From a phage: a stretch of 64,000 nt of DNA. A program made the position numbers and the translations under genes. The stretch lies in NCBI GenBank assembly GCA_014435945.1, contig GCA_014435945.1_4088.1; one strand, given 5' to 3'. Positions 13,832 to 54,093 of this stretch are shown here, one piece after another. A model generated the notes under the pieces. The model worked only from the letters and a program-made list of their open reading frames with translations. It had not been told where the DNA came from and searched no databases. How positions within the stretch are numbered: position 1 is the first letter of the stretch; every line of letters starts with the position of its first letter.

Positions 13832-14170
13832 ATGGAACATCATTTTGAATTAATTAATAAGGTATCATTTTATATAGTATCGTTAGTTTGGGTGTATTAC
13901 ATGTTTGGTTACATTATTGCATTCTTCCGATACACGACCTTGTATCAACGCATATACTACGATGCACCAATTTCATTTTTGATGTTCTGTGCATGTACGT
14001 GGGGGATAATTGAAGCACTGGTATGTGGATATAGTACGGACGAATTAAATCTCGTATCGGTGTTGACATTACTAACAATTGCTACTATGATAGCTACAGT
14101 TCCAATATTTTTGCTCTTTAAACTGCTTCATCGCATCGATGAGTGGCGTAATAAAATCCCTGAAAAGTAA
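13832..14170 (+). CDS. small multi-pass membrane protein, paralog family M
   Basis: 3-4 hydrophobic segments; basic C-terminus RNKIPEK. Confidence 0.5.
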   Translation: MEHHFELINKVSFYIVSLVWVYYMFGYIIAFFRYTTLYQRIYYDAPISFLMFCACTWGIIEALVCGYSTDELNLVSVLTLLTIATMIATVPIFLLFKLLHRIDEWRNKIPEK

Positions 14171-14179
14171 GGATTGATA

Positions 14180-14521
14180 ATGATTTTTTACACTAATGCG
14201 TTTGCTTATGCCGTTGCATCAATCTACATTGTGTACTTCTTATTTGGTGGAGTACTGTACTTCTTTAAGTACAAAACATTGTTTAACCGAATGTATCCAA
14301 ATCATCCAATTGTAGTAGTACTTTTGATTATTTCTGTTGCTCACATCATTGTAGAAACAATAATGGGTATTAGTGCAGTACATTACAGTCTAGGTACTAT
14401 TGTGATTATTACTATGATCATCGCATACATTTTAGTAATGGGTTCTGGTTTATTTGGGAATGTAGCAATGAAATTGTATAATCGAATTAAAACCTTACGT
14501 GATAATCTACCGGAGCGTTGA
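14180..14521 (+). CDS. small multi-pass membrane protein, family M
   Basis: C-terminus LRDNLPER; shared FKYKTLFNRMYP-type motif. Confidence 0.5.
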   Translation: MIFYTNAFAYAVASIYIVYFLFGGVLYFFKYKTLFNRMYPNHPIVVVLLIISVAHIIVETIMGISAVHYSLGTIVIITMIIAYILVMGSGLFGNVAMKLYNRIKTLRDNLPER

Positions 14522-23964: not shown

Positions 23965-24615
23965 ATGAATAAAAGAAGTAAGTTCTATCAAGAATATTTC
24001 ACTAAACAGAAACGATTCACAAAAAAATACTTTACATCATCCCACCGACCAGTTGCAAGTTACAAACGTCCTAATACTAACTATCTTACTGGTGGCAAGT
24101 TTAGTGCAAAGTTCGAATTACTTATGCGTGAAAAGAATATCAAGATGCATTACGCAGAGACGAGAAAAAACTCATCAATTATTTGCTCTGATTTTCTTGA
24201 GTACGGTTGCTTAACTTATAAATTCAACGATGTATATTTGTATATTGATGTTGATTGTAACAGTACTCGTATGTTTGAGATTTCAATTCACCCAAATCAC
24301 AACCGTTATATAAACATTAACTTGGTTGATAAAGTACTGATTGGTATATCTAGTACTGATGGTGGTGGATTTGAATTTATTGCTTCAAAATATGATGAAG
24401 ATTTCGTACTTTACCCAGTACTTGATGATGTGAAAGATATTCTCAATTCATTAAAAGGAAGTCAATACAAATTATCTGAAGAACAGCTATTCCAGTACTC
24501 ACTTATTCATGATGATATCGAGATATACTTAGAGTGTGCGAGAATCTTGGAGTATCTTTATAATGAACTAACAACAACTGGTAAAGTGACTGCATTCACA
24601 TTATATAATATGTAA
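23965..24615 (+). CDS. hypothetical basic protein (216 aa), opposite strand, embedded inside the RCC1-like array
   Basis: ORF track; SD GAGG; TATAAT upstream. Confidence 0.5.
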   Translation: MNKRSKFYQEYFTKQKRFTKKYFTSSHRPVASYKRPNTNYLTGGKFSAKFELLMREKNIKMHYAETRKNSSIICSDFLEYGCLTYKFNDVYLYIDVDCNSTRMFEISIHPNHNRYININLVDKVLIGISSTDGGGFEFIASKYDEDFVLYPVLDDVKDILNSLKGSQYKLSEEQLFQYSLIHDDIEIYLECARILEYLYNELTTTGKVTAFTLYNM

Positions 24616-43913: not shown

Positions 43914-44015
43914 ATTTCCTCCTTTATTCATTATATCATATTTACCCCATAAACAAAACCCTTGACATCCTTTCAGTACTGGTGTACTATAGAAGGAATA
44001 TAAGGAGAACTGTAC
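43914..44015. promoter_or_regulatory. divergent promoter region: -10/SD cassette for the minus array and TTGACA-N17-TACTAT plus AAGGAG for the + strand mini-gene array
   Basis: cccttgacatcctttcagtactggtgtactat on + strand; TATAATGAATAAAGGAGG on - strand. Confidence 0.55.
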
Positions 44016-44243
44016 ATGACAACTACACTTAAGTACTACCTCAATACTCTAAATGAACTAGAGTACGCGAAGTTTCTCGCGGATAGTTCGTGGCTAATTG
44101 AGCTAAAAACACATAACAGTACTGGATGTAACCTTATGCTGAACAATGCACTTGATACCCTTGTAGTGAGTATTTTACACAGCAACATCTGCGGGGATAG
44201 CAATAAACAATTATCAAAAATCTTAGTACTGGTAGCTCTATGA
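44016..44243 (+). CDS. mini-protein family S member
   Basis: ORF track; SD AAGGAG. Confidence 0.5.
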   Translation: MTTTLKYYLNTLNELEYAKFLADSSWLIELKTHNSTGCNLMLNNALDTLVVSILHSNICGDSNKQLSKILVLVAL

Positions 44244-44452
44244 ACACTATGAACATTGAACAGTACTACATTGATGCACTACCAACAAAAGGTCTACGAG
44301 AAAGCCTACTGTATACACAAAATAATTATATAAACCTCAAACATTGTCCTAAACTCTTGAACTCGTACAGGAATAATAAAATAAGAAATGCTGTACAAGG
44401 GGTAGAAAGTATGCAATACTATTACATCCTAACCCTTTTAATCGAACACTAA
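44240..44452 (+). CDS. mini-protein family S member (N-terminal ..QYYIDALP, Tyr/Leu-rich C-terminus)
   Basis: ORF track; tandem paralogs. Confidence 0.5.
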   Translation: MNTMNIEQYYIDALPTKGLRESLLYTQNNYINLKHCPKLLNSYRNNKIRNAVQGVESMQYYYILTLLIEH

Positions 44453-44453
44453 T

Positions 44454-44639
44454 ATGTATAAAGAATTCTACTGTAGTAAGCTGCACAAACAATACAGAGA
44501 TTCATTTCCCAATGAACCTATGGATATGAATAGTCCCTTTTATAAATTTGACTTCAGACTGGAGACACGTTATGCAATAGAACATCAATTTCCTGAAACT
44601 AAGTACTTATCTATCATGAACCTCATCTTTAAGTTCTAA
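44454..44639 (+). CDS. mini-protein family S member
   Basis: ORF track. Confidence 0.45.
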   Translation: MYKEFYCSKLHKQYRDSFPNEPMDMNSPFYKFDFRLETRYAIEHQFPETKYLSIMNLIFKF

Positions 44640-44650
44640 AAGAGTACTAT

Positions 44651-44863
44651 ATGAAAACTATGAACATACACCAGTACTACTTAGATATTCTCCCTAAAGA
44701 TGTACAGTTCATCCTTAAACAAGAATACAGTACTTTAAAAAACCTTAAAAGAACCGCACCGAATGTATTAATCCTGCACCAAGAAAATGTAGTTGATAAT
44801 ATTCTACAAGGTGTACCAGGGACCGAGTACTTTAACATAATAAGGCTAATTACATTACCATGA
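44651..44863 (+). CDS. mini-protein family S member
   Basis: ORF track. Confidence 0.5.
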   Translation: MKTMNIHQYYLDILPKDVQFILKQEYSTLKNLKRTAPNVLILHQENVVDNILQGVPGTEYFNIIRLITLP

Positions 44864-45045
44864 ATCATATATTATACTATTACCAAAATCTATCCGACAG
44901 GGACAAGTACACCCACAACTCCAATGTATGGTACTACAAACGCGGTAGTATAAGAGACAAACAACATTACTTCTGTATTGCTATAAAAGAAGCACTAACA
45001 ACTAAGTACACGTACAGAGCAGTACTGAAACTTATTGATATGTAA
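44860..45045 (+). CDS. mini-protein family S member
   Basis: ORF track. Confidence 0.5.
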   Translation: MNHILYYYQNLSDRDKYTHNSNVWYYKRGSIRDKQHYFCIAIKEALTTKYTYRAVLKLIDM

Positions 45046-45055
45046 AGAGAATACT

Positions 45056-45238
45056 ATGAGCATTGAATTGTACTTAAGTAAATTACAGCCTGGCGATAGA
45101 TTCATCTACAATAAGTTCGAATTCAACTACAAGAACGGGAGCAACAAATATCGTCGAGGATACCTATATACAAGCACAAGAGATGCACAAAACGAAAAGT
45201 ACACATACAGAGAAGTACTTAAACTAATCTCTATTTGA
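45056..45238 (+). CDS. mini-protein family S member (C-terminus YTYREVLKLISI)
   Basis: ATG after upstream stop. Confidence 0.5.
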   Translation: MSIELYLSKLQPGDRFIYNKFEFNYKNGSNKYRRGYLYTSTRDAQNEKYTYREVLKLISI

Positions 45239-45246
45239 GGTAATAT

Positions 45247-45432
45247 ATGAACACATTTGAGTACTATACAAATAAACTATCTATGCCTGAAAGATCTCAT
45301 CTCTATGTGTGGAGAAATGCGTATAAAAGCGGCAATAAACTTATACAAAGAAATTCCCTTACAGTGTGTACAAATTTAATTAAAGCAGAGTACCGCACAT
45401 ATATTGAAGTACTCAAACTGATAGCAATATAA
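45247..45432 (+). CDS. mini-protein family S member
   Basis: ORF track. Confidence 0.5.
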   Translation: MNTFEYYTNKLSMPERSHLYVWRNAYKSGNKLIQRNSLTVCTNLIKAEYRTYIEVLKLIAI

Positions 45433-45440
45433 GGTACTCT

Positions 45441-45620
45441 ATGCAAGAATTCTATATCTATAACCTCCAGCACAAAGATAGATACAACTATAATAAATTC
45501 CAAAGGTACTACACAGTCGGGAACAAAAGAGATAAAAAACGTTATCTACTCTCGTGTACAGTAGAAGCACAAAACGAAAAGTACAGGTACAGAGAAGTAC
45601 TTAAACTAATCTCAATCTAA
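45441..45620 (+). CDS. mini-protein family S member (59 aa, missed by 60-aa cutoff)
   Basis: Read manually; MQEFYIYNL...YRYREVLKLISI. Confidence 0.5.
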   Translation: MQEFYIYNLQHKDRYNYNKFQRYYTVGNKRDKKRYLLSCTVEAQNEKYRYREVLKLISI

Positions 45621-45627
45621 GGTAGAC

Positions 45628-45816
45628 ATGAACACTTTTGAGTACTACTTCAATAAACTAAACCACATAGAACAAAGTATGCACAACTCATTTATTCAGC
45701 ACCATCAATCATCTGCATCTGGAATTAAAAATATATCGATTGAGATTATAACTACCCGTGTACTGTCATCTGAACGTTATATGTATATTGATGTACTGAA
45801 ACTCATCTCTATGTAA
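45628..45816 (+). CDS. mini-protein family S member
   Basis: ORF track. Confidence 0.5.
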   Translation: MNTFEYYFNKLNHIEQSMHNSFIQHHQSSASGIKNISIEIITTRVLSSERYMYIDVLKLISM

Positions 45817-45824
45817 GGAATAAT

Positions 45825-46004
45825 ATGCAAGAATACTATATAGAACACATAAACATTAAAGACCGTTTCATGTACGACACCTTCGTGAAGTACTACAACC
45901 TGGCAACTAACAGTACTAAAAATATTAATCTCAATAGCTGCATTCATCACGCACTAACAAAAGATAATCCCTTCAGGGAAATCCTCGCTCTCGCATCTGT
46001 ATAA
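45825..46004 (+). CDS. mini-protein family S member (59 aa, missed by cutoff)
   Basis: Read manually; MQEYYIEHI... Confidence 0.45.
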   Translation: MQEYYIEHINIKDRFMYDTFVKYYNLATNSTKNINLNSCIHHALTKDNPFREILALASV

Positions 46005-46014
46005 AGGAAACCAA

Positions 46015-46674
46015 ATGAAACTTAATGCACACAGCAAACAATACCTTAAGCACTTTAAGTACCTCAACAGTATTCAAGCAGAATCTTTTACATCTGCATA
46101 TACGTATCACCCAAATGTACTAAAGAAACGAAATAAAAAGAAAAAATCCAGAAATGTTCTCGTATCTAAGAACCTCAAATCGTACTTGAAGAAAAATAAT
46201 ATAGCTCTTGCTTTTATTAATATCTATAATACTGATTTAAAAGTATTGAGTACTAATACCAGCACAAAAGCACTAAAGAATGCATCTATCTATATACACA
46301 TGGATAATATCCCGTGTACTATAATTCTATCTTTCGGGAATGTATACTTCTTCGGGAATTGTAATAGCACCCATGATATCAGTACTGCACAATTCCAAAT
46401 CGGAGATATGTACTGCATGGGTTCAGAAAAAATACACGATAACATGCACTTCTTCCAAAAGCAACGTACTAACGAAACTGATACAGTACTGCAATTCCTC
46501 AAAGAACTACAAAACAAAGAATTAACACCAGAAGAAGAATTCATGTACAGTACTGTAATCGATAATCCAGAACTCTATAAAAACGCGTACAAACTAACAA
46601 AACATGTACAGGAACTTATCAGTACTGATAAGAAATTTCATAACCTCATTACGTATATTACAAACTATGTATAA
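46015..46674 (+). CDS. hypothetical protein (219 aa) interrupting the mini-gene array
   Basis: ORF track. Confidence 0.5.
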   Translation: MKLNAHSKQYLKHFKYLNSIQAESFTSAYTYHPNVLKKRNKKKKSRNVLVSKNLKSYLKKNNIALAFINIYNTDLKVLSTNTSTKALKNASIYIHMDNIPCTIILSFGNVYFFGNCNSTHDISTAQFQIGDMYCMGSEKIHDNMHFFQKQRTNETDTVLQFLKELQNKELTPEEEFMYSTVIDNPELYKNAYKLTKHVQELISTDKKFHNLITYITNYV

Positions 46675-46849
46675 AGAATACTACAAAGATAAAATCCCAA
46701 TGCATCTACAACACCATATACCAAACGTTGCATTGGGTATCAAAGATCACACAAAGATAATGTTCCAACAATGTACTAAGTACACGCTCATATACGATGA
46801 TAATCCATATATGCTGTACTACGTAGTAATGCTAACATTCAGGTACTAA
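46667..46849 (+). CDS. mini-protein family S member (MYKEYYKDKIP...)
   Basis: ATG overlapping upstream stop. Confidence 0.5.
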   Translation: MYKEYYKDKIPMHLQHHIPNVALGIKDHTKIMFQQCTKYTLIYDDNPYMLYYVVMLTFRY

Positions 46850-46850
46850 T

Positions 46851-47030
46851 ATGCACAAATATAAAGAATTCTACCTCTCGTACCTTAATTCCGATATAGT
46901 AACATCCAATACATTCAGTACTAAAATTATCTATAATGAAGTAATGAAAGAATGTATTAAAGGTGCTATTAACCCTAAAGATACGTATGACTTGTACTAT
47001 GCAGTACTAACCCTTGTTTTCACGAAATAA
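46851..47030 (+). CDS. mini-protein family S member (59 aa, missed by cutoff)
   Basis: Read manually; MHKYKEFYLSYL... Confidence 0.5.
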   Translation: MHKYKEFYLSYLNSDIVTSNTFSTKIIYNEVMKECIKGAINPKDTYDLYYAVLTLVFTK

Positions 47031-47038
47031 CACATAAT

Positions 47039-47230
47039 ATGAATAACCACAAAGAATACTACATAGAGAAACTCCCAATGTATCTACAACACCTTGTACC
47101 AACAGAACCATTGCGTATAGAAAAAGACTACGAAAAAGACTATTTCATTAAGTGCACTAAATCCTCGATAGATATTGAGGACTATAATAGAGTACTGTAT
47201 CACATCCTTTTACTAATATATAAGTACTAA
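47039..47230 (+). CDS. mini-protein family S member (MNNHKEYYIEKLP...)
   Basis: ORF track. Confidence 0.55.
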   Translation: MNNHKEYYIEKLPMYLQHLVPTEPLRIEKDYEKDYFIKCTKSSIDIEDYNRVLYHILLLIYKY

Positions 47231-47240
47231 AGAGAACAAT

Positions 47241-47429
47241 ATGAATAACCACAAAGAATACTACACACAATTTCTCCCCAGCATTTTTGAACACTACGCC
47301 AGATATAAAGTCCCCCTGGATAACGATTTGGCAGTACTGGGATTCAATAATTGCATAGAACGCAGTATAGAAAATAGTAGTAGCTATGACCAATTATATA
47401 ACACTATCCTACTTATATTCAGGTACTAA
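47241..47429 (+). CDS. mini-protein family S member
   Basis: ORF track. Confidence 0.55.
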   Translation: MNNHKEYYTQFLPSIFEHYARYKVPLDNDLAVLGFNNCIERSIENSSSYDQLYNTILLIFRY

Positions 47430-47430
47430 T

Positions 47431-47619
47431 ATGCATAAAGAATACTACACAAAATATTTCCCAATGTACCTCAGTACTAATCTATTAGATAAACCTCGCG
47501 GTATCAATGCACAAAACGATAAAGTGTACTTTACTATGTGCACTAAAGCATGTATACTAGATTTTGATAGCTATCATCGAGTACTATACCACACTCTGTA
47601 CCTCGCGTTCGTGTACTAA
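47431..47619 (+). CDS. mini-protein family S member (MHKEYYTKYFP...)
   Basis: ATG immediately after upstream stop. Confidence 0.55.
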   Translation: MHKEYYTKYFPMYLSTNLLDKPRGINAQNDKVYFTMCTKACILDFDSYHRVLYHTLYLAFVY

Positions 47620-47629
47620 AGAGGCCAAT

Positions 47630-47836
47630 ATGAACGAACAGAAAGAATTTTACACCAAATACCTCAGCAACGAAGAACAATTGTTTCTAAGGAGTGTATC
47701 ACCTTTAAGTTTAGATACACCACACGCCAGACATTGCTTTAATAATTGTATACGTAGTACTCTAGAAGCTTTAGAAAACAATAACAAAAAGATTCAGTAC
47801 TCAGGTGTAATAGGACTAATATTCTTCTATGAATAA
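47630..47836 (+). CDS. mini-protein family S member (MNEQKEFYTKYL...)
   Basis: Internal ATG of track ORF. Confidence 0.55.
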   Translation: MNEQKEFYTKYLSNEEQLFLRSVSPLSLDTPHARHCFNNCIRSTLEALENNNKKIQYSGVIGLIFFYE

Positions 47837-48008
47837 CTATAAAGAATTCTACATAAGCCATCTGGATATAAACTCCCAAATGCTTATACCACTAAAACCA
47901 ATAGATTTCAAGGATAAGAAAAATACCCAACAATTTATTGACCATACTGACTGTGCGGTGAACCAAAATTATATGTACTACATTCTCGCCCTAATATACA
48001 GGTACTAA
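47829..48008 (+). CDS. mini-protein family S member (59 aa, missed by cutoff)
   Basis: Read manually; MNNYKEFYISHL... Confidence 0.5.
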   Translation: MNNYKEFYISHLDINSQMLIPLKPIDFKDKKNTQQFIDHTDCAVNQNYMYYILALIYRY

Positions 48009-48009
48009 T

Positions 48010-48195
48010 ATGCATAGAGAATACTACACACAATTTGTTAAAGGGAACTACAAACACGCCGTCCCCGTAAACCCCTTAAATTCTAATGACCCAAGTACTA
48101 TATTCTTGTTCCATGACGCAATACGTACAGTACTCAATACTAAAGATGAACAGGTGCAGTACGTATTCTTACTTTTACTTATATACAGACACTAA
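48010..48195 (+). CDS. mini-protein family S member
   Basis: ORF track. Confidence 0.55.
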   Translation: MHREYYTQFVKGNYKHAVPVNPLNSNDPSTIFLFHDAIRTVLNTKDEQVQYVFLLLLIYRH

Positions 48196-48200
48196 CTAAT

Positions 48201-48410
48201 ATGAATAATGAACATAAAGAATTCTATTCCAAACACCTCAGCCAATCAGAACAAATGTTTCTAAGGACTACACCACCTTTAAGTACTAATACATATTTCG
48301 GCAGAGTATGCTACAATAATTGTATTCAAATGACTTTAAACGCAAACGCCAATGGTAACAGTACTAACCTGTACTCAGGCATCATAGGTATACTATTTCT
48401 ATATGAATAA
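48201..48410 (+). CDS. mini-protein family S member
   Basis: ORF track. Confidence 0.55.
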   Translation: MNNEHKEFYSKHLSQSEQMFLRTTPPLSTNTYFGRVCYNNCIQMTLNANANGNSTNLYSGIIGILFLYE

Positions 48411-48585
48411 AGAACATAAAGACTTCTATATAAGAAAACTAACATTCGTCCCCGTAAGAATATACAAAGAATGCGACCCAAGATTATACCTATGGCACTT
48501 CAATGAGTGCATAAAAGATTCTATATACCCTAAGAACTATAAAGAACAATTGATCTCAGTACTAACACTAGTACTATCATATTAA
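48403..48585 (+). CDS. mini-protein family S member
   Basis: ORF track; ATGA overlap. Confidence 0.55.
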   Translation: MNKEHKDFYIRKLTFVPVRIYKECDPRLYLWHFNECIKDSIYPKNYKEQLISVLTLVLSY

Positions 48586-48598
48586 TAGAGATAATACT

Positions 48599-48781
48599 AT
48601 GTATAAAGACTTCTATATAAGTAAACTAAAAGAAAACGAACAAGCATGGGTTAACAATTTAATCCCCTTGGCAATGACTCAATACGAATTTAATATGTGT
48701 ACAAAGATTGTTTTAACTACTAATGATATCTCTAATACGTACTACTTCCTAGTAAGAGTACTATATGGTACTTTGAAATAA
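48599..48781 (+). CDS. mini-protein family S member
   Basis: ORF track. Confidence 0.5.
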   Translation: MYKDFYISKLKENEQAWVNNLIPLAMTQYEFNMCTKIVLTTNDISNTYYFLVRVLYGTLK

Positions 48782-48792
48782 TAAGGTATACT

Positions 48793-48999
48793 ATGCAGAA
48801 CATAAAAAATTATAAAGAGTACTATATAAGTAAACTACCACCGACTGACCAAGCATGGATTAGATCTATAATAGTACTTGCATTTAATAGATATGCATTT
48901 AACAGATGTACCGAGATTGCTATAGACCCTTATAATATTAAAGAGAATGTACAGCATAATCAGTACTACTATATGTTAATGCTTATATATAGGAAGTAA
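48793..48999 (+). CDS. mini-protein family S member
   Basis: ORF track. Confidence 0.55.
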   Translation: MQNIKNYKEYYISKLPPTDQAWIRSIIVLAFNRYAFNRCTEIAIDPYNIKENVQHNQYYYMLMLIYRK

Positions 49000-49124
49000 T
49001 TCAACATATAGACAGGGGAAGCTCCGCAGGGAAAGCATTGGACAGGCTTTAACATATGTTATATATGTTAAAATTCAGCCTGGACAAATGCGATCACTAG
49101 GATTCTCCCCAGGCTAAACCCCGT

Positions 49125-49410
49125 AATCATATGTAGTCATAAGTAATCATATATAAACATTTAAGTAATCATTTATAATCACAGTAGTGATCAGTAGTGA
49201 GTACTAGAGTGTAATAGAGTGTAATAGAGTACAGGAATGTGCACGTTTAATCAAGAACGTAGCAGTACTGCCCCAAAAGTATTCAGTACTGAAGGTGTCG
49301 ATATGCCACTAAGTAGGCAGAGGAAGTCTGCCGTACTTTGTAGTTTCCAAGCTCCTTTTCCATTTTGCAAATTACATCAAATGTAATCAAAAGTAATCAC
49401 GCAATGATTA
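49125..49410. repeat. cluster of short direct repeats (GTAATCA about 6 times; AGTGTAATAGAGT twice)
   Basis: Read directly in ORF-free region. Confidence 0.5.
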
Positions 49411-49448
49411 GTACTGAATTATTACTTTCACCTTAATTACAATTACCC

Positions 49449-49468
49449 TTTTACCCTTCGGGGTAAAA
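49449..49468 (+). other. perfect hairpin TTTTACCC-TTCG-GGGTAAAA (UUCG tetraloop) with no T-run
   Basis: 8-bp inverted repeat. Confidence 0.5.
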
Positions 49469-49686
49469 TTCCATTACCCCTTGAGGCTCCAGCAAAAAGT
49501 TGGTTAGTACTCCATCCTAAATCTCGATCCTAAAAATTTTGGAGTACCTATGAAATAAAAGTTGGATCTTCGAAAGTTGAAATTTACGTTGGGACGTTTA
49601 TGATTTGTGGGATATAATGATGTTTGTAGTCGGGTAGTTCTCAAGAATATCAGTACTGAATGGTGAAAGAAAGTTATTGACATTAT

Positions 49687-49716
49687 GATTCAGTACTGTA
49701 TAATGTTCTACATAGA
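49687..49716 (+). promoter_or_regulatory. orphan sigma70-like promoter (TTGACA-N17-TATAAT) with no ORF for over 1 kb
   Basis: ttgacattatgattcagtactgtataat. Confidence 0.45.
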
Positions 49717-50029
49717 GAGATGAGTTGCTGCGAACAATTCATTTACTCTACCTCCTGTCGTGAGACAGTACAGAAAAGATAGTTCCTCCTATTGGTGGTG
49801 CATCTTTTTGAACCTCATATGAAAATCGTAATAACAGTACTGATATTAACAGAATGGTATTAGTACTGATTTTAATCTAAAGCATTATGCCACCAGCTTG
49901 TGCTGGTGGATTCCCTCTAACAGTATTCAGTACTACATGATGGTCTTCATCCTCCTAGGGTAACATAGTGAGGGCTATGATGGCAGTACTGAATACTCCT
50001 TTCACAAGATAGATCTATGGTATAGTACT

Positions 50030-51461: not shown

Positions 51462-51701
51462 ATGGCTAAATCAAAAATGTTCTTAGGTCACAAAAACAAA
51501 ACTCAATGGAATGTAAGCCTTTGGATTAATAACGACGAATCATTATACCGGTTGGCCCAGGACTTTATTGCCGCTAACACTAATCGTAATGATGCGGCCC
51601 GTCATATGATGCTATTTTTAGAACAGACTGGACAAGATAAAACGCCGGACGGCTTTAAGTATAGCACTACTGCGATCCGTGCGGCGATGGTTGGAATGTA
51701 A
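51462..51701 (+). CDS. hypothetical protein; paralog of 53854..54093
   Basis: Shared GHKNKTQWNVSLWINN..ESLYRLAQ...TPDGFKYSTTAIRAAMVGM. Confidence 0.55.
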   Translation: MAKSKMFLGHKNKTQWNVSLWINNDESLYRLAQDFIAANTNRNDAARHMMLFLEQTGQDKTPDGFKYSTTAIRAAMVGM

Positions 51702-53853: not shown

Positions 53854-54093
53854 ATGGCTAGTACTAAAACTTACAACGGGCACAAAAACAAAACTCATTG
53901 GAATGTTTCCTTATGGATTAATAACGGTGAGTCATTGTATCGGCTTGCTCAAAGTTGCATCGCACAAAGTAGAACTAAAGATATTGCTGCGGAATGTATG
54001 TACCGCAGATTAAAAGCCAACGGTACTACTACAACGCCGGACGGATTCAAGTATAGCACTACGGCGATCCGTGCTGCAATGGTTGGAATGTAA
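53854..54093 (+). CDS. hypothetical protein; paralog of 51462..51701
   Basis: Shared motifs; identical promoter unit. Confidence 0.55.
   Translation: MASTKTYNGHKNKTHWNVSLWINNGESLYRLAQSCIAQSRTKDIAAECMYRRLKANGTTTTPDGFKYSTTAIRAAMVGM

Follow-up and report, generated by a model that had tools for sequence, protein, structure and literature searches.

Early clusters of host-takeover genes have been described in several bacteriophages, including the SPO1 module, T4, T5, PA5oct, CBB and GAP32. These clusters have in common small genes, host-type promoters, adjacency to a terminal repeat and products that are not part of the virion, and most of their genes are unrelated to each other. Tandem duplication is known as a route by which jumbo phage genomes expand, with 121Q explicitly cited as an example (PMC5646251; PMC7824862; PMC7247149), and earlier papers point in a general way to the tandem arrays of 121Q and phAPEC6 as evidence that genomes grow by duplication (PMC5646251; PMC7247149). 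A further class to compare is that of the alpha-alpha hairpin repeat modules (HEAT/ARM-like and CID/VHS-like). Here we describe a locus at positions 44016–48999 of a 64,000-nucleotide stretch of phage DNA (GenBank assembly GCA_014435945.1, contig GCA_014435945.1_4088.1; the whole stretch is hereafter called the window), where 22 mini-genes of 59–75 amino acids (aa) are tightly packed on the + strand together with one conserved open reading frame (ORF) of 219 aa. The locus is similar to the takeover clusters in gene size, promoter type, position and the non-virion nature of its products, whereas 21 of its 22 mini-genes are paralogs of one fold. It also differs from what the tandem-duplication papers report, since they name no particular genes or function and speak of "very similar" copies, while the mini-genes are diverged with a median paralog identity of 21%. 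We give about even weight to the proposal that the array is an early, non-virion operon encoding diversified small helical binding modules for host takeover or defence evasion.

The region 44016–48999 is 97% identical to Escherichia phage BF17 and matches 34 records, all of them E. coli or Salmonella jumbo phages of the PBECO4/121Q/G17 type in the genus Asteriusvirus; judging from these matches, the phage of the window is a PBECO4/121Q-type jumbo coliphage. Synteny of the array is preserved across all the Asteriusvirus loci examined, and such loci allow the coding status of the mini-genes to be assessed. Pooled Nei-Gojobori ratios of nonsynonymous to synonymous substitution (dN/dS) are 0.37 against SHEFM2K, 0.41 against G17, 0.41 against slurp01 and 0.26 against BF17, whereas reading these alignments in either of the other two frames yields 1.06–1.39. 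Orthologous ORFs are nearly all intact, and where the lengths of orthologs differ the frame is kept. By this in-frame signal in the alignments, the array is coding and under purifying selection, and non-coding repeats are excluded. An earlier note on this DNA had read the run as a tandem array of paralogous coding mini-genes and had named a lack of codon-level conservation as a sign of non-coding repeats; both the conservation and the paralogy (by profile-profile comparison, see below) were found. Orthologs are mostly 75–100% identical at the nucleotide level and each paralog is retained as an ortholog across phages, while copy number varies from phage to phage, suggesting that the mini-genes are individually dispensable.

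All 22 small + strand ORFs recognized in the earlier note are present in the ORF calls. Four of them had been found only by hand below a 60-aa cutoff, namely the 59-aa genes at 45441–45620, 45825–46004, 46851–47030 and 47829–48008, and these are real ORFs with BLASTP matches to other members. Among the 978 stop-to-stop ORFs of the window they score E-values of 1e-17 to 1e-30 with the family hidden Markov models (HMMs), which were built including those four and are thus not independent of them, as the pairwise BLASTP comparison is. The family HMMs detected no further member among the ORFs of the 64-kb window. For four genes the starts proposed by the ORF finder are too long, and the family-consistent ATG codons lie at 45056, 46667, 47431 and 47630.

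Numbering the mini-genes m01 to m22 in their order along the DNA, all-against-all BLASTP divides them into three groups, leaving m01 aside. Subfamily A has six members, m05–m10, which end in KYTYREVLKLISI. These are m05 (61 aa, 44860–45045), m06 (60 aa, 45056–45238, its start moved from a TTG at 45035), m07 (61 aa, 45247–45432), the hand-found m08 (59 aa, 45441–45620), m09 (62 aa, 45628–45816) and the hand-found m10 (59 aa, 45825–46004); m05, m09 and m10 are assigned by BLASTP, HMM and orthologs, m07 by BLASTP and HMM, and m08 by HMM together with its predicted structure. Subfamily B has 13 members, m03 and m11–m22, with the pattern KEYY...C...LLLIYRY. Apart from m03 (61 aa, 44454–44639), they form one main block consisting of m11 (60 aa, 46667–46849, start refined), the hand-found m12 (59 aa, 46851–47030), m13 (63 aa, 47039–47230), m14 (62 aa, 47241–47429), m15 (62 aa, 47431–47619, start refined from 47386), m16 (68 aa, 47630–47836, start refined from 47564), the hand-found m17 (59 aa, 47829–48008), m18 (61 aa, 48010–48195), m19 (69 aa, 48201–48410, the nearest paralog of m16), m20 (60 aa, 48403–48585), m21 (60 aa, 48599–48781) and the last gene m22 (68 aa, 48793–48999). 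Among these, m12 and m17 are assigned by BLASTP and HMM, and m14, m18, m19, m20 and m21 by BLASTP, HMM and orthologs. Subfamily C consists of m02 (70 aa, 44240–44452), placed by the BLASTP grouping, and m04 (70 aa, 44651–44863), which matches m02 in BLASTP at about 1e-11 in the small array database. The order of subfamily blocks is broadly kept across genomes, with local variation.

The subfamilies are connected by profile-profile alignment with hhalign, using profiles enriched with relatives from database searches. Subfamily A aligns to B over 54 columns with 95% probability (E 2e-8), and C aligns to B over 57 columns with 74% probability (E 3e-5). In the window the best match of the B HMM outside subfamily B is m07 (E 0.001), and some sequences bridge the two subfamilies, such as P0069 with 47.6 bits to the B HMM and 20.4 bits to the A HMM. 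The similarity extends over the full length of the profiles and the helix topology is the same, and by these comparisons 21 of the 22 mini-genes constitute one superfamily, A+B+C. The first gene, m01 (75 aa, 44016–44243), is an ORF whose family membership is not established: it was considered as a member, yet hhalign gives less than 2% probability to A, B and C, and it shares just an N-terminal KYYLNTL-like motif. Its orthologs are intact and 90–98% identical in nucleotide sequence. The shared sequence pattern proposed in the earlier note therefore holds for 21 of the 22 genes as a single superfamily, but as three subfamilies rather than one uniform family, and the central F-N-x-C-(I/T) motif, which it gave for many members, is confined to subfamily B in the alignment. 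On this sequence evidence the superfamily is lineage-specific and derives from old tandem duplication followed by divergence.

The predicted structures agree with this grouping. The AlphaFold2 model of the B-type protein m13, computed from an alignment of all 22 window genes, has a predicted local distance difference test score (pLDDT) of 90.4 and helices at residues 3–10, 14–17, 30–45 and 49–61, and that of the A-type protein m08, computed from A-type sequences only, has a pLDDT of 91.9 and four helices at 2–7, 11–26, 29–43 and 46–58. Helix order is shared by the two models, B having a Pro-rich loop and a short helix in place of the long second helix of A. We are thus confident in the prediction that the mini-proteins are small helical bundles. 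Every member keeps a common hydrophobic scaffold, in which a helix with (K)EYYxxxL at the N-terminus and one with YxxxLxLI at the C-terminus pack on a central helix, whereas the segment between the scaffold helices and the helix surfaces are variable. Across the 22 genes, Tyr8 is the one invariant residue and Leu59 comes close to invariance, while polar residues are not conserved, which points to a scaffold rather than an active site; the proteins are thus not enzymes. They are rich in Tyr and Leu, with 10% Tyr. A membrane-bound or secreted nature was considered and rejected, as the longest hydrophobic run is 11 residues and no signal peptide-like N-terminus is present. Searches with the models found no informative fold match in PDB or BFVD.

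Internal head proteins of the T4 type carry a capsid-targeting peptide that ends in a hydrophobic-x-Glu protease site. The N-terminal motif of the mini-proteins may loosely recall this peptide. The possibility that the ORFs are such virion internal proteins, or else spurious or non-coding, could draw further on the shortness of the genes, many of them below gene-calling cut-offs, and on the several records that annotate only about half of them. Against this stand the selection signal and the intact orthologs given above, the confident models in which the N-terminal helix is part of the fold, the lack of any conserved Glu cleavage site after the EYY motif, and an early-type predicted promoter. 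The virion proteome of phAPEC6 lists 62 proteins (PMC7247149, Table 1), and no mini-protein is among them though a 4.7-kDa protein was detected (PMC7247149), while phAPEC6 does encode mini-proteins, e.g., gp542c and gp545c. We regard spurious ORFs or internal head proteins as extremely improbable.

A search with tblastn using m08 and m13 found the family in 36 phage records, all of the Asteriusvirus type and from E. coli or Salmonella. At a larger scale, a word-based profile search of 5.8 billion proteins gave 54 matches, and 40 clusters were found when 1.84 billion cluster representatives were scanned exhaustively with HMMER. All of these matches are 41–84 aa long and of the same kind, the named ones coming from Asteriusvirus phages or E. 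coli records, and neither search found a distant annotated homolog of the mini-proteins or of the 219-aa ORF. As far as these databases represent it, the family is restricted to Asteriusvirus-type phages, and two divergent metagenomic contigs that were examined have the same locus layout. Twelve genomes carry 14–22 mini-genes each. No family of Pfam-A was matched at the gathering threshold (the best being EB1 with 17 bits against a cut-off of 27), PADLOC-DB contained no family at E ≤0.1 for m01, m02, m08, m13, the 219-aa ORF or one RCC1-like protein of the neighbouring array, and sequence searches of PDB returned nothing usable for the mini-proteins.

Part of the family has been known as sequence. 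The genes have been deposited in GenBank as hypothetical proteins of PBECO4, 121Q, G17, phAPEC6 and SHEFM2K, and subfamily B corresponds to PHROG 11711, matching it from end to end. The PHROG match covers profile positions 1–62 or 3–62 for m03 (E 2e-15), m13 (E 3e-27), m16 (E 5e-12) and m22 (E 3e-19). This correspondence is limited to subfamily B: the A, C and m01 members scanned do not match, and m01, m02, m06, m08 and m09 hit no PHROG at E ≤0.01. In G17, 121Q and SHEFM2K the same genes are annotated one by one. The records of BF17, vB_Ec-M-J and PBECO4 annotate 6–12 of 17–22 intact mini-genes, and under-annotation of small genes is systematic in Asteriusvirus. The present analysis adds the joining of the subfamilies into one superfamily, structural models, a test of selection, a conserved class of promoter and a comparison of copy numbers; annotations and searchable papers were found to contain neither the link among A, B and C nor the fold, the promoter or the comparison of copy numbers.

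The position and layout of the array bear on how and when it would be expressed. Position 50000 of the window aligns to position 699 of vB_Ec-M-J, within its annotated direct terminal repeat, and in fEgEco12 a terminal repeat of 20,993 bp, a length confirmed in the literature (PMC13070987), starts 303 bp past the mini-gene array. From these alignments we infer that the terminal repeat (~21 kb) starts about 300 bp beyond the array end, near window position 49302, which would make the array the last gene cluster of the unique region, transcribed toward the repeat. On the other side, the array is divergent from an array of RCC1-like genes, as the earlier note had it, and the 84-bp intergenic region holds a predicted sigma70-type promoter (43962–43990, + strand), a Shine-Dalgarno sequence AAGGAG (44002–44007, + strand) kept in all loci, and then the first ATG. 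Found by consensus scan, the promoter consists of TTGACA, 6 nt, CAGTACTG, 3 nt and TACTAT, with a 17-nt spacer. Of 12 aligned copies, 11 share the same −35 and −10 hexamers, and CAGTACTG is likewise intact in 11; the deviating copy of JNE01 has CTGGACTG in place of CAGTACTG and a −10 element of TACAAT. The intergenic DNA is 86–96% identical across loci, in most of them above m01 (90% in SHEFM2K, G17 and slurp01), and the promoter and the Shine-Dalgarno sequence are kept even in loci with a different first gene. The promoter belongs to a phage-specific class, TTGACA-N8-CAGTACTG-TATAAT, with nine exact matches in the window where 0.01 would be expected; most of them are in the terminal-repeat region, where small genes are numerous.

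Downstream of this promoter, genes overlap or stand 1 nt apart at nine of the 22 junctions and are separated by 5–13 nt at the other 13. A weak Shine-Dalgarno-like element precedes 14 of the 23 starts, thus several genes probably rely on stop-start coupling. The scan found no terminator-like site inside the array, nor did the annotators of G17 mark one, and the first terminator-like hairpin downstream (49313–49332, + strand, hairpin scan) is located at the putative start of the terminal repeat. Going by this layout, the mini-gene array is probably a single polycistronic operon. In PA5oct, a RaK2-like relative, terminal-repeat genes are early and depend on the host RNA polymerase (PMC7318152), and in CBB runs of short hypothetical genes, interpreted as serving early takeover, lie behind RpoD-type promoters, the structural genes being preceded by a T4-like ATAAATA motif (PMC5259590). 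The promoter class, the adjacency to the repeat and the pattern seen in PA5oct and CBB together lead us to infer one early operon; its timing would follow from its position beside the terminal repeat, a region where related phages carry early genes.

According to the proposal that we favor, the sigma70 RNA polymerase of the host would read the operon early from the one promoter at 43962–43990, translation would proceed partly by stop-start coupling, and the soluble products of about 60 aa would remain in the cell rather than be packaged in virions. There they would form a set of small modules for protein binding, each one recognizing a different host (or possibly phage) factor, and the binding would serve host takeover or defence evasion. 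The locus has the predicted host-type promoter, the terminal-repeat adjacency and the small products absent from the virion list that are found in takeover clusters, and no sequence or fold homology of the mini-proteins to any characterised takeover protein was detected. Several points weigh against this proposal. The predicted promoter is a consensus match only (10/12), and such matches are not enriched regionally; the searchable literature contains no Asteriusvirus transcriptome; the dN/dS values of 0.3–0.4 indicate constraint, not the positive selection that an arms-race model predicts; and the size of the array tracks that of the RCC1-like array, which would not be expected of a role directed purely at the host. 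Asteriusvirus is not treated in a jumbo-phage review or a phage Tn-seq preprint.

The RCC1-like array consists of 17 genes on the − strand (22763–43931) encoding RCC1-like (WD40_RLD beta-propeller) proteins, assigned to Pfam PF25390 and PHROG 4219 via relatives. The earlier note had supposed a similar copy number in the two arrays and, from this and their adjacency, the possibility of a functional pairing; with 17 genes against 22 the copy numbers are not alike, and the evidence on the pairing is divided. What speaks for it is that divergent adjacency is kept in 13 of the 13 genomes examined and that array sizes covary over 12 genomes (mini-genes 14–22, RCC1-like equivalents 7–17, r = 0.83). 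With a crude correction by independent contrasts r is 0.84 (p = 0.0007), the tree used being weak: 1.4 kb from four mosaic markers with conflicting relationships, two of which are missing from some loci. Phage CMSTMSU (MH494197.1) was excluded from the correlation since its sequence is ridden with frameshifts, showing 35 RCC1-like fragments for about 15 gene equivalents. The conflict among the flanking marker genes is an indication of mosaic recombination around the locus. On the other hand, the ratio of mini-genes to RCC1-like genes ranges between 1.3 and 2.6 without reaching 1:1 in any genome (TH47 has 18 and 7, respectively), and the two arrays differ in regulatory design and in presence in the virion. 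A cassette of about 70 bp, nearly identical each time, stands in front of approximately 11 of the 17 RCC1-like genes and is composed of a terminator hairpin (GCCAGTACT...AGTACTGGC, then a run of T), TAAATATAGTATAAT without a −35 element, and AAAGGAGGGAAAT before the ATG. The cassette-bearing genes have a strong Shine-Dalgarno sequence, AAAGGAGG, and the other six start 9–12 nt after the upstream gene. In the phAPEC6 virion list eight entries belong to the RCC1-like cluster (gp003, 005, 006, 007, 009, 010, 549, and 551), six of them annotated as "DNA condensation protein" and two, gp006 and gp010, as "hypothetical" and counted by position and size.

These observations are the ground on which the mini-proteins could be seen as dedicated partners (chaperones, stabilisers or regulators) of the 17 RCC1-like beta-propellers, matched by subgroup. 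The adjacency over a shared 84-bp control region and the covariation would fit such a role, as would the expansion of both families in Asteriusvirus only, GAP32 having one RCC1-like gene and neither mini-genes nor a homolog of the 219-aa ORF in its first 12 kb, where that gene lies. The same RCC1-like gene of GAP32 shows at once that such a gene exists without mini-genes. The arrays are also separate and not interleaved, so that pairs have never duplicated as units, and a single sigma70-type operon is set against the terminator and TAAATATAGTATAAT cassettes of most RCC1-like genes. To this are added the uneven ratios and the fact that RCC1-like paralogs are virion-associated whereas the mini-proteins are not. 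Also the covariation itself is read on a tree of mosaic markers, and physical linkage means that the two arrays are exchanged together. We consider dedicated partnership possible but on the whole unlikely. In particular, the layout is not that of virion or tail-fibre assembly chaperones, as the mini-genes form a divergent TTGACA-type operon and are not placed downstream of a client, and the cassette of the RCC1-like genes is different. A broader version would treat the two arrays as one coupled system in which early mini-proteins serve as binders for subsets of virion-borne RCC1-like beta-propellers, either as assembly or licensing factors or as immunity-like neutralisers, with the arrays expanding and contracting together; to us this seems doubtful.

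The juxtaposition of a diversified array of small helical proteins with a diversified array of larger virion proteins, the covariation of their sizes and the predicted early expression could also suggest an immunity-like or superinfection-exclusion panel, comparable with arrays of orphan immunity genes, that neutralises virion-delivered RCC1-like proteins or other effectors of competing phages. However, RCC1-like proteins have no known toxin-like domain and their ejection into the cell is an assumption; no interleaved effector-immunity gene order is seen and no immunity family of PADLOC or Pfam is matched. This explanation is entirely speculative and in our view very improbable. The layout is not that of classical effector-immunity or toxin-antitoxin pairs either, since the arrays are separate, lie on opposite strands and have the uneven ratios given above in the 12 genomes.

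One further alternative is related to the palindrome CAGTACTG, of which the window holds 58 copies where chance would give 1.06, and which is dense at 49263–49991. Its sites are found in the spacers of sigma70-like promoters, in the stems of RCC1 intergenic terminators and in coding DNA, and some phage or host factor may bind or modify the DNA there; nothing relevant on the motif was found in the searchable literature. The mini-proteins might then be nucleic-acid-binding or transcription-modulating factors for the phage's own programme, acting for example at CAGTACTG sites. Four of the six subfamily A members are indeed strongly basic (pI 9.4–9.7, net charge +5 to +7), and an over-represented palindrome in promoters and terminators implies some binding factor. 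But subfamily B is mostly near neutral (pI 5.5–9.3), Pfam and fold searches revealed no helix-turn-helix, zinc-binding or other DNA-binding signature, and 22 diverged paralogs fit a single palindromic target poorly, which makes a nucleic-acid-binding role improbable.

The 219-aa ORF (46015–46674, + strand) separates the A block from the main B block, overlapping m11 by 8 nt. It interrupts the run and is unrelated to the mini-genes, as the earlier note observed, having no match to the family HMMs. It belongs to PHROG 29152 (E 3e-113), which is annotated as of unknown function, and gives no Pfam or PADLOC match. Its homologs are confined to Asteriusvirus-type contigs. In the Salmonella phages SD-2_S15 and SD-6_S16 it is shortened to 137 and 120 aa, respectively, and this truncation in Salmonella-infecting phages suggests that the full-length protein is not universally required. 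Four copies of CAGTACTG are located in its 3' half.

Some additional features were observed in the surroundings. An unrelated 216-aa + strand ORF (23965–24615) lies between the first and second RCC1-like genes, and in 121Q and G17 an ORF alike in size and equivalent in orientation flanks the array end, the likeness being one of size and orientation. For the last RCC1-like gene the start given by the ORF finder at 43931 (MNKGGN...) is probably six codons too far upstream. Upstream of the RCC1-like array, two neighbouring paralogs on the + strand (13832–14170 and 14180–14521; 112 and 113 aa) belong to a run of genes of 110–125 aa. Around the inferred repeat boundary, the non-coding DNA at 49000–49400 carries short tandem repeats, including about five copies of GTAATCAT-type units of about 10 nt at 49123–49181 and three copies of GTAATAGAGT at 49201–49230, and these may have a link to genome ends or packaging. 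In the terminal-repeat region there are two paralogous 79-aa genes (51462–51701 and 53854–54093, + strand), and in a related contig the 79-aa genes at the equivalent place carry Pfam DUF7249.

For the biology of these phages, the array amounts to about 3% of the genes in a therapy-relevant coliphage genus, several GenBank records annotate only half of the array, and jumbo phages in general are mostly unannotated. As 22 predicted natural mini-binders, its products would constitute a compact panel for finding targets of host takeover or anti-defence in E. coli. If the covariation of the two arrays reflects real coupling, it would provide the first functional handle on the multi-copy RCC1-like virion proteins, and coupled arrays, if true, would amount to a polymorphic system of two arrays, encoded by the phage and serving host-range variation or inter-phage competition.

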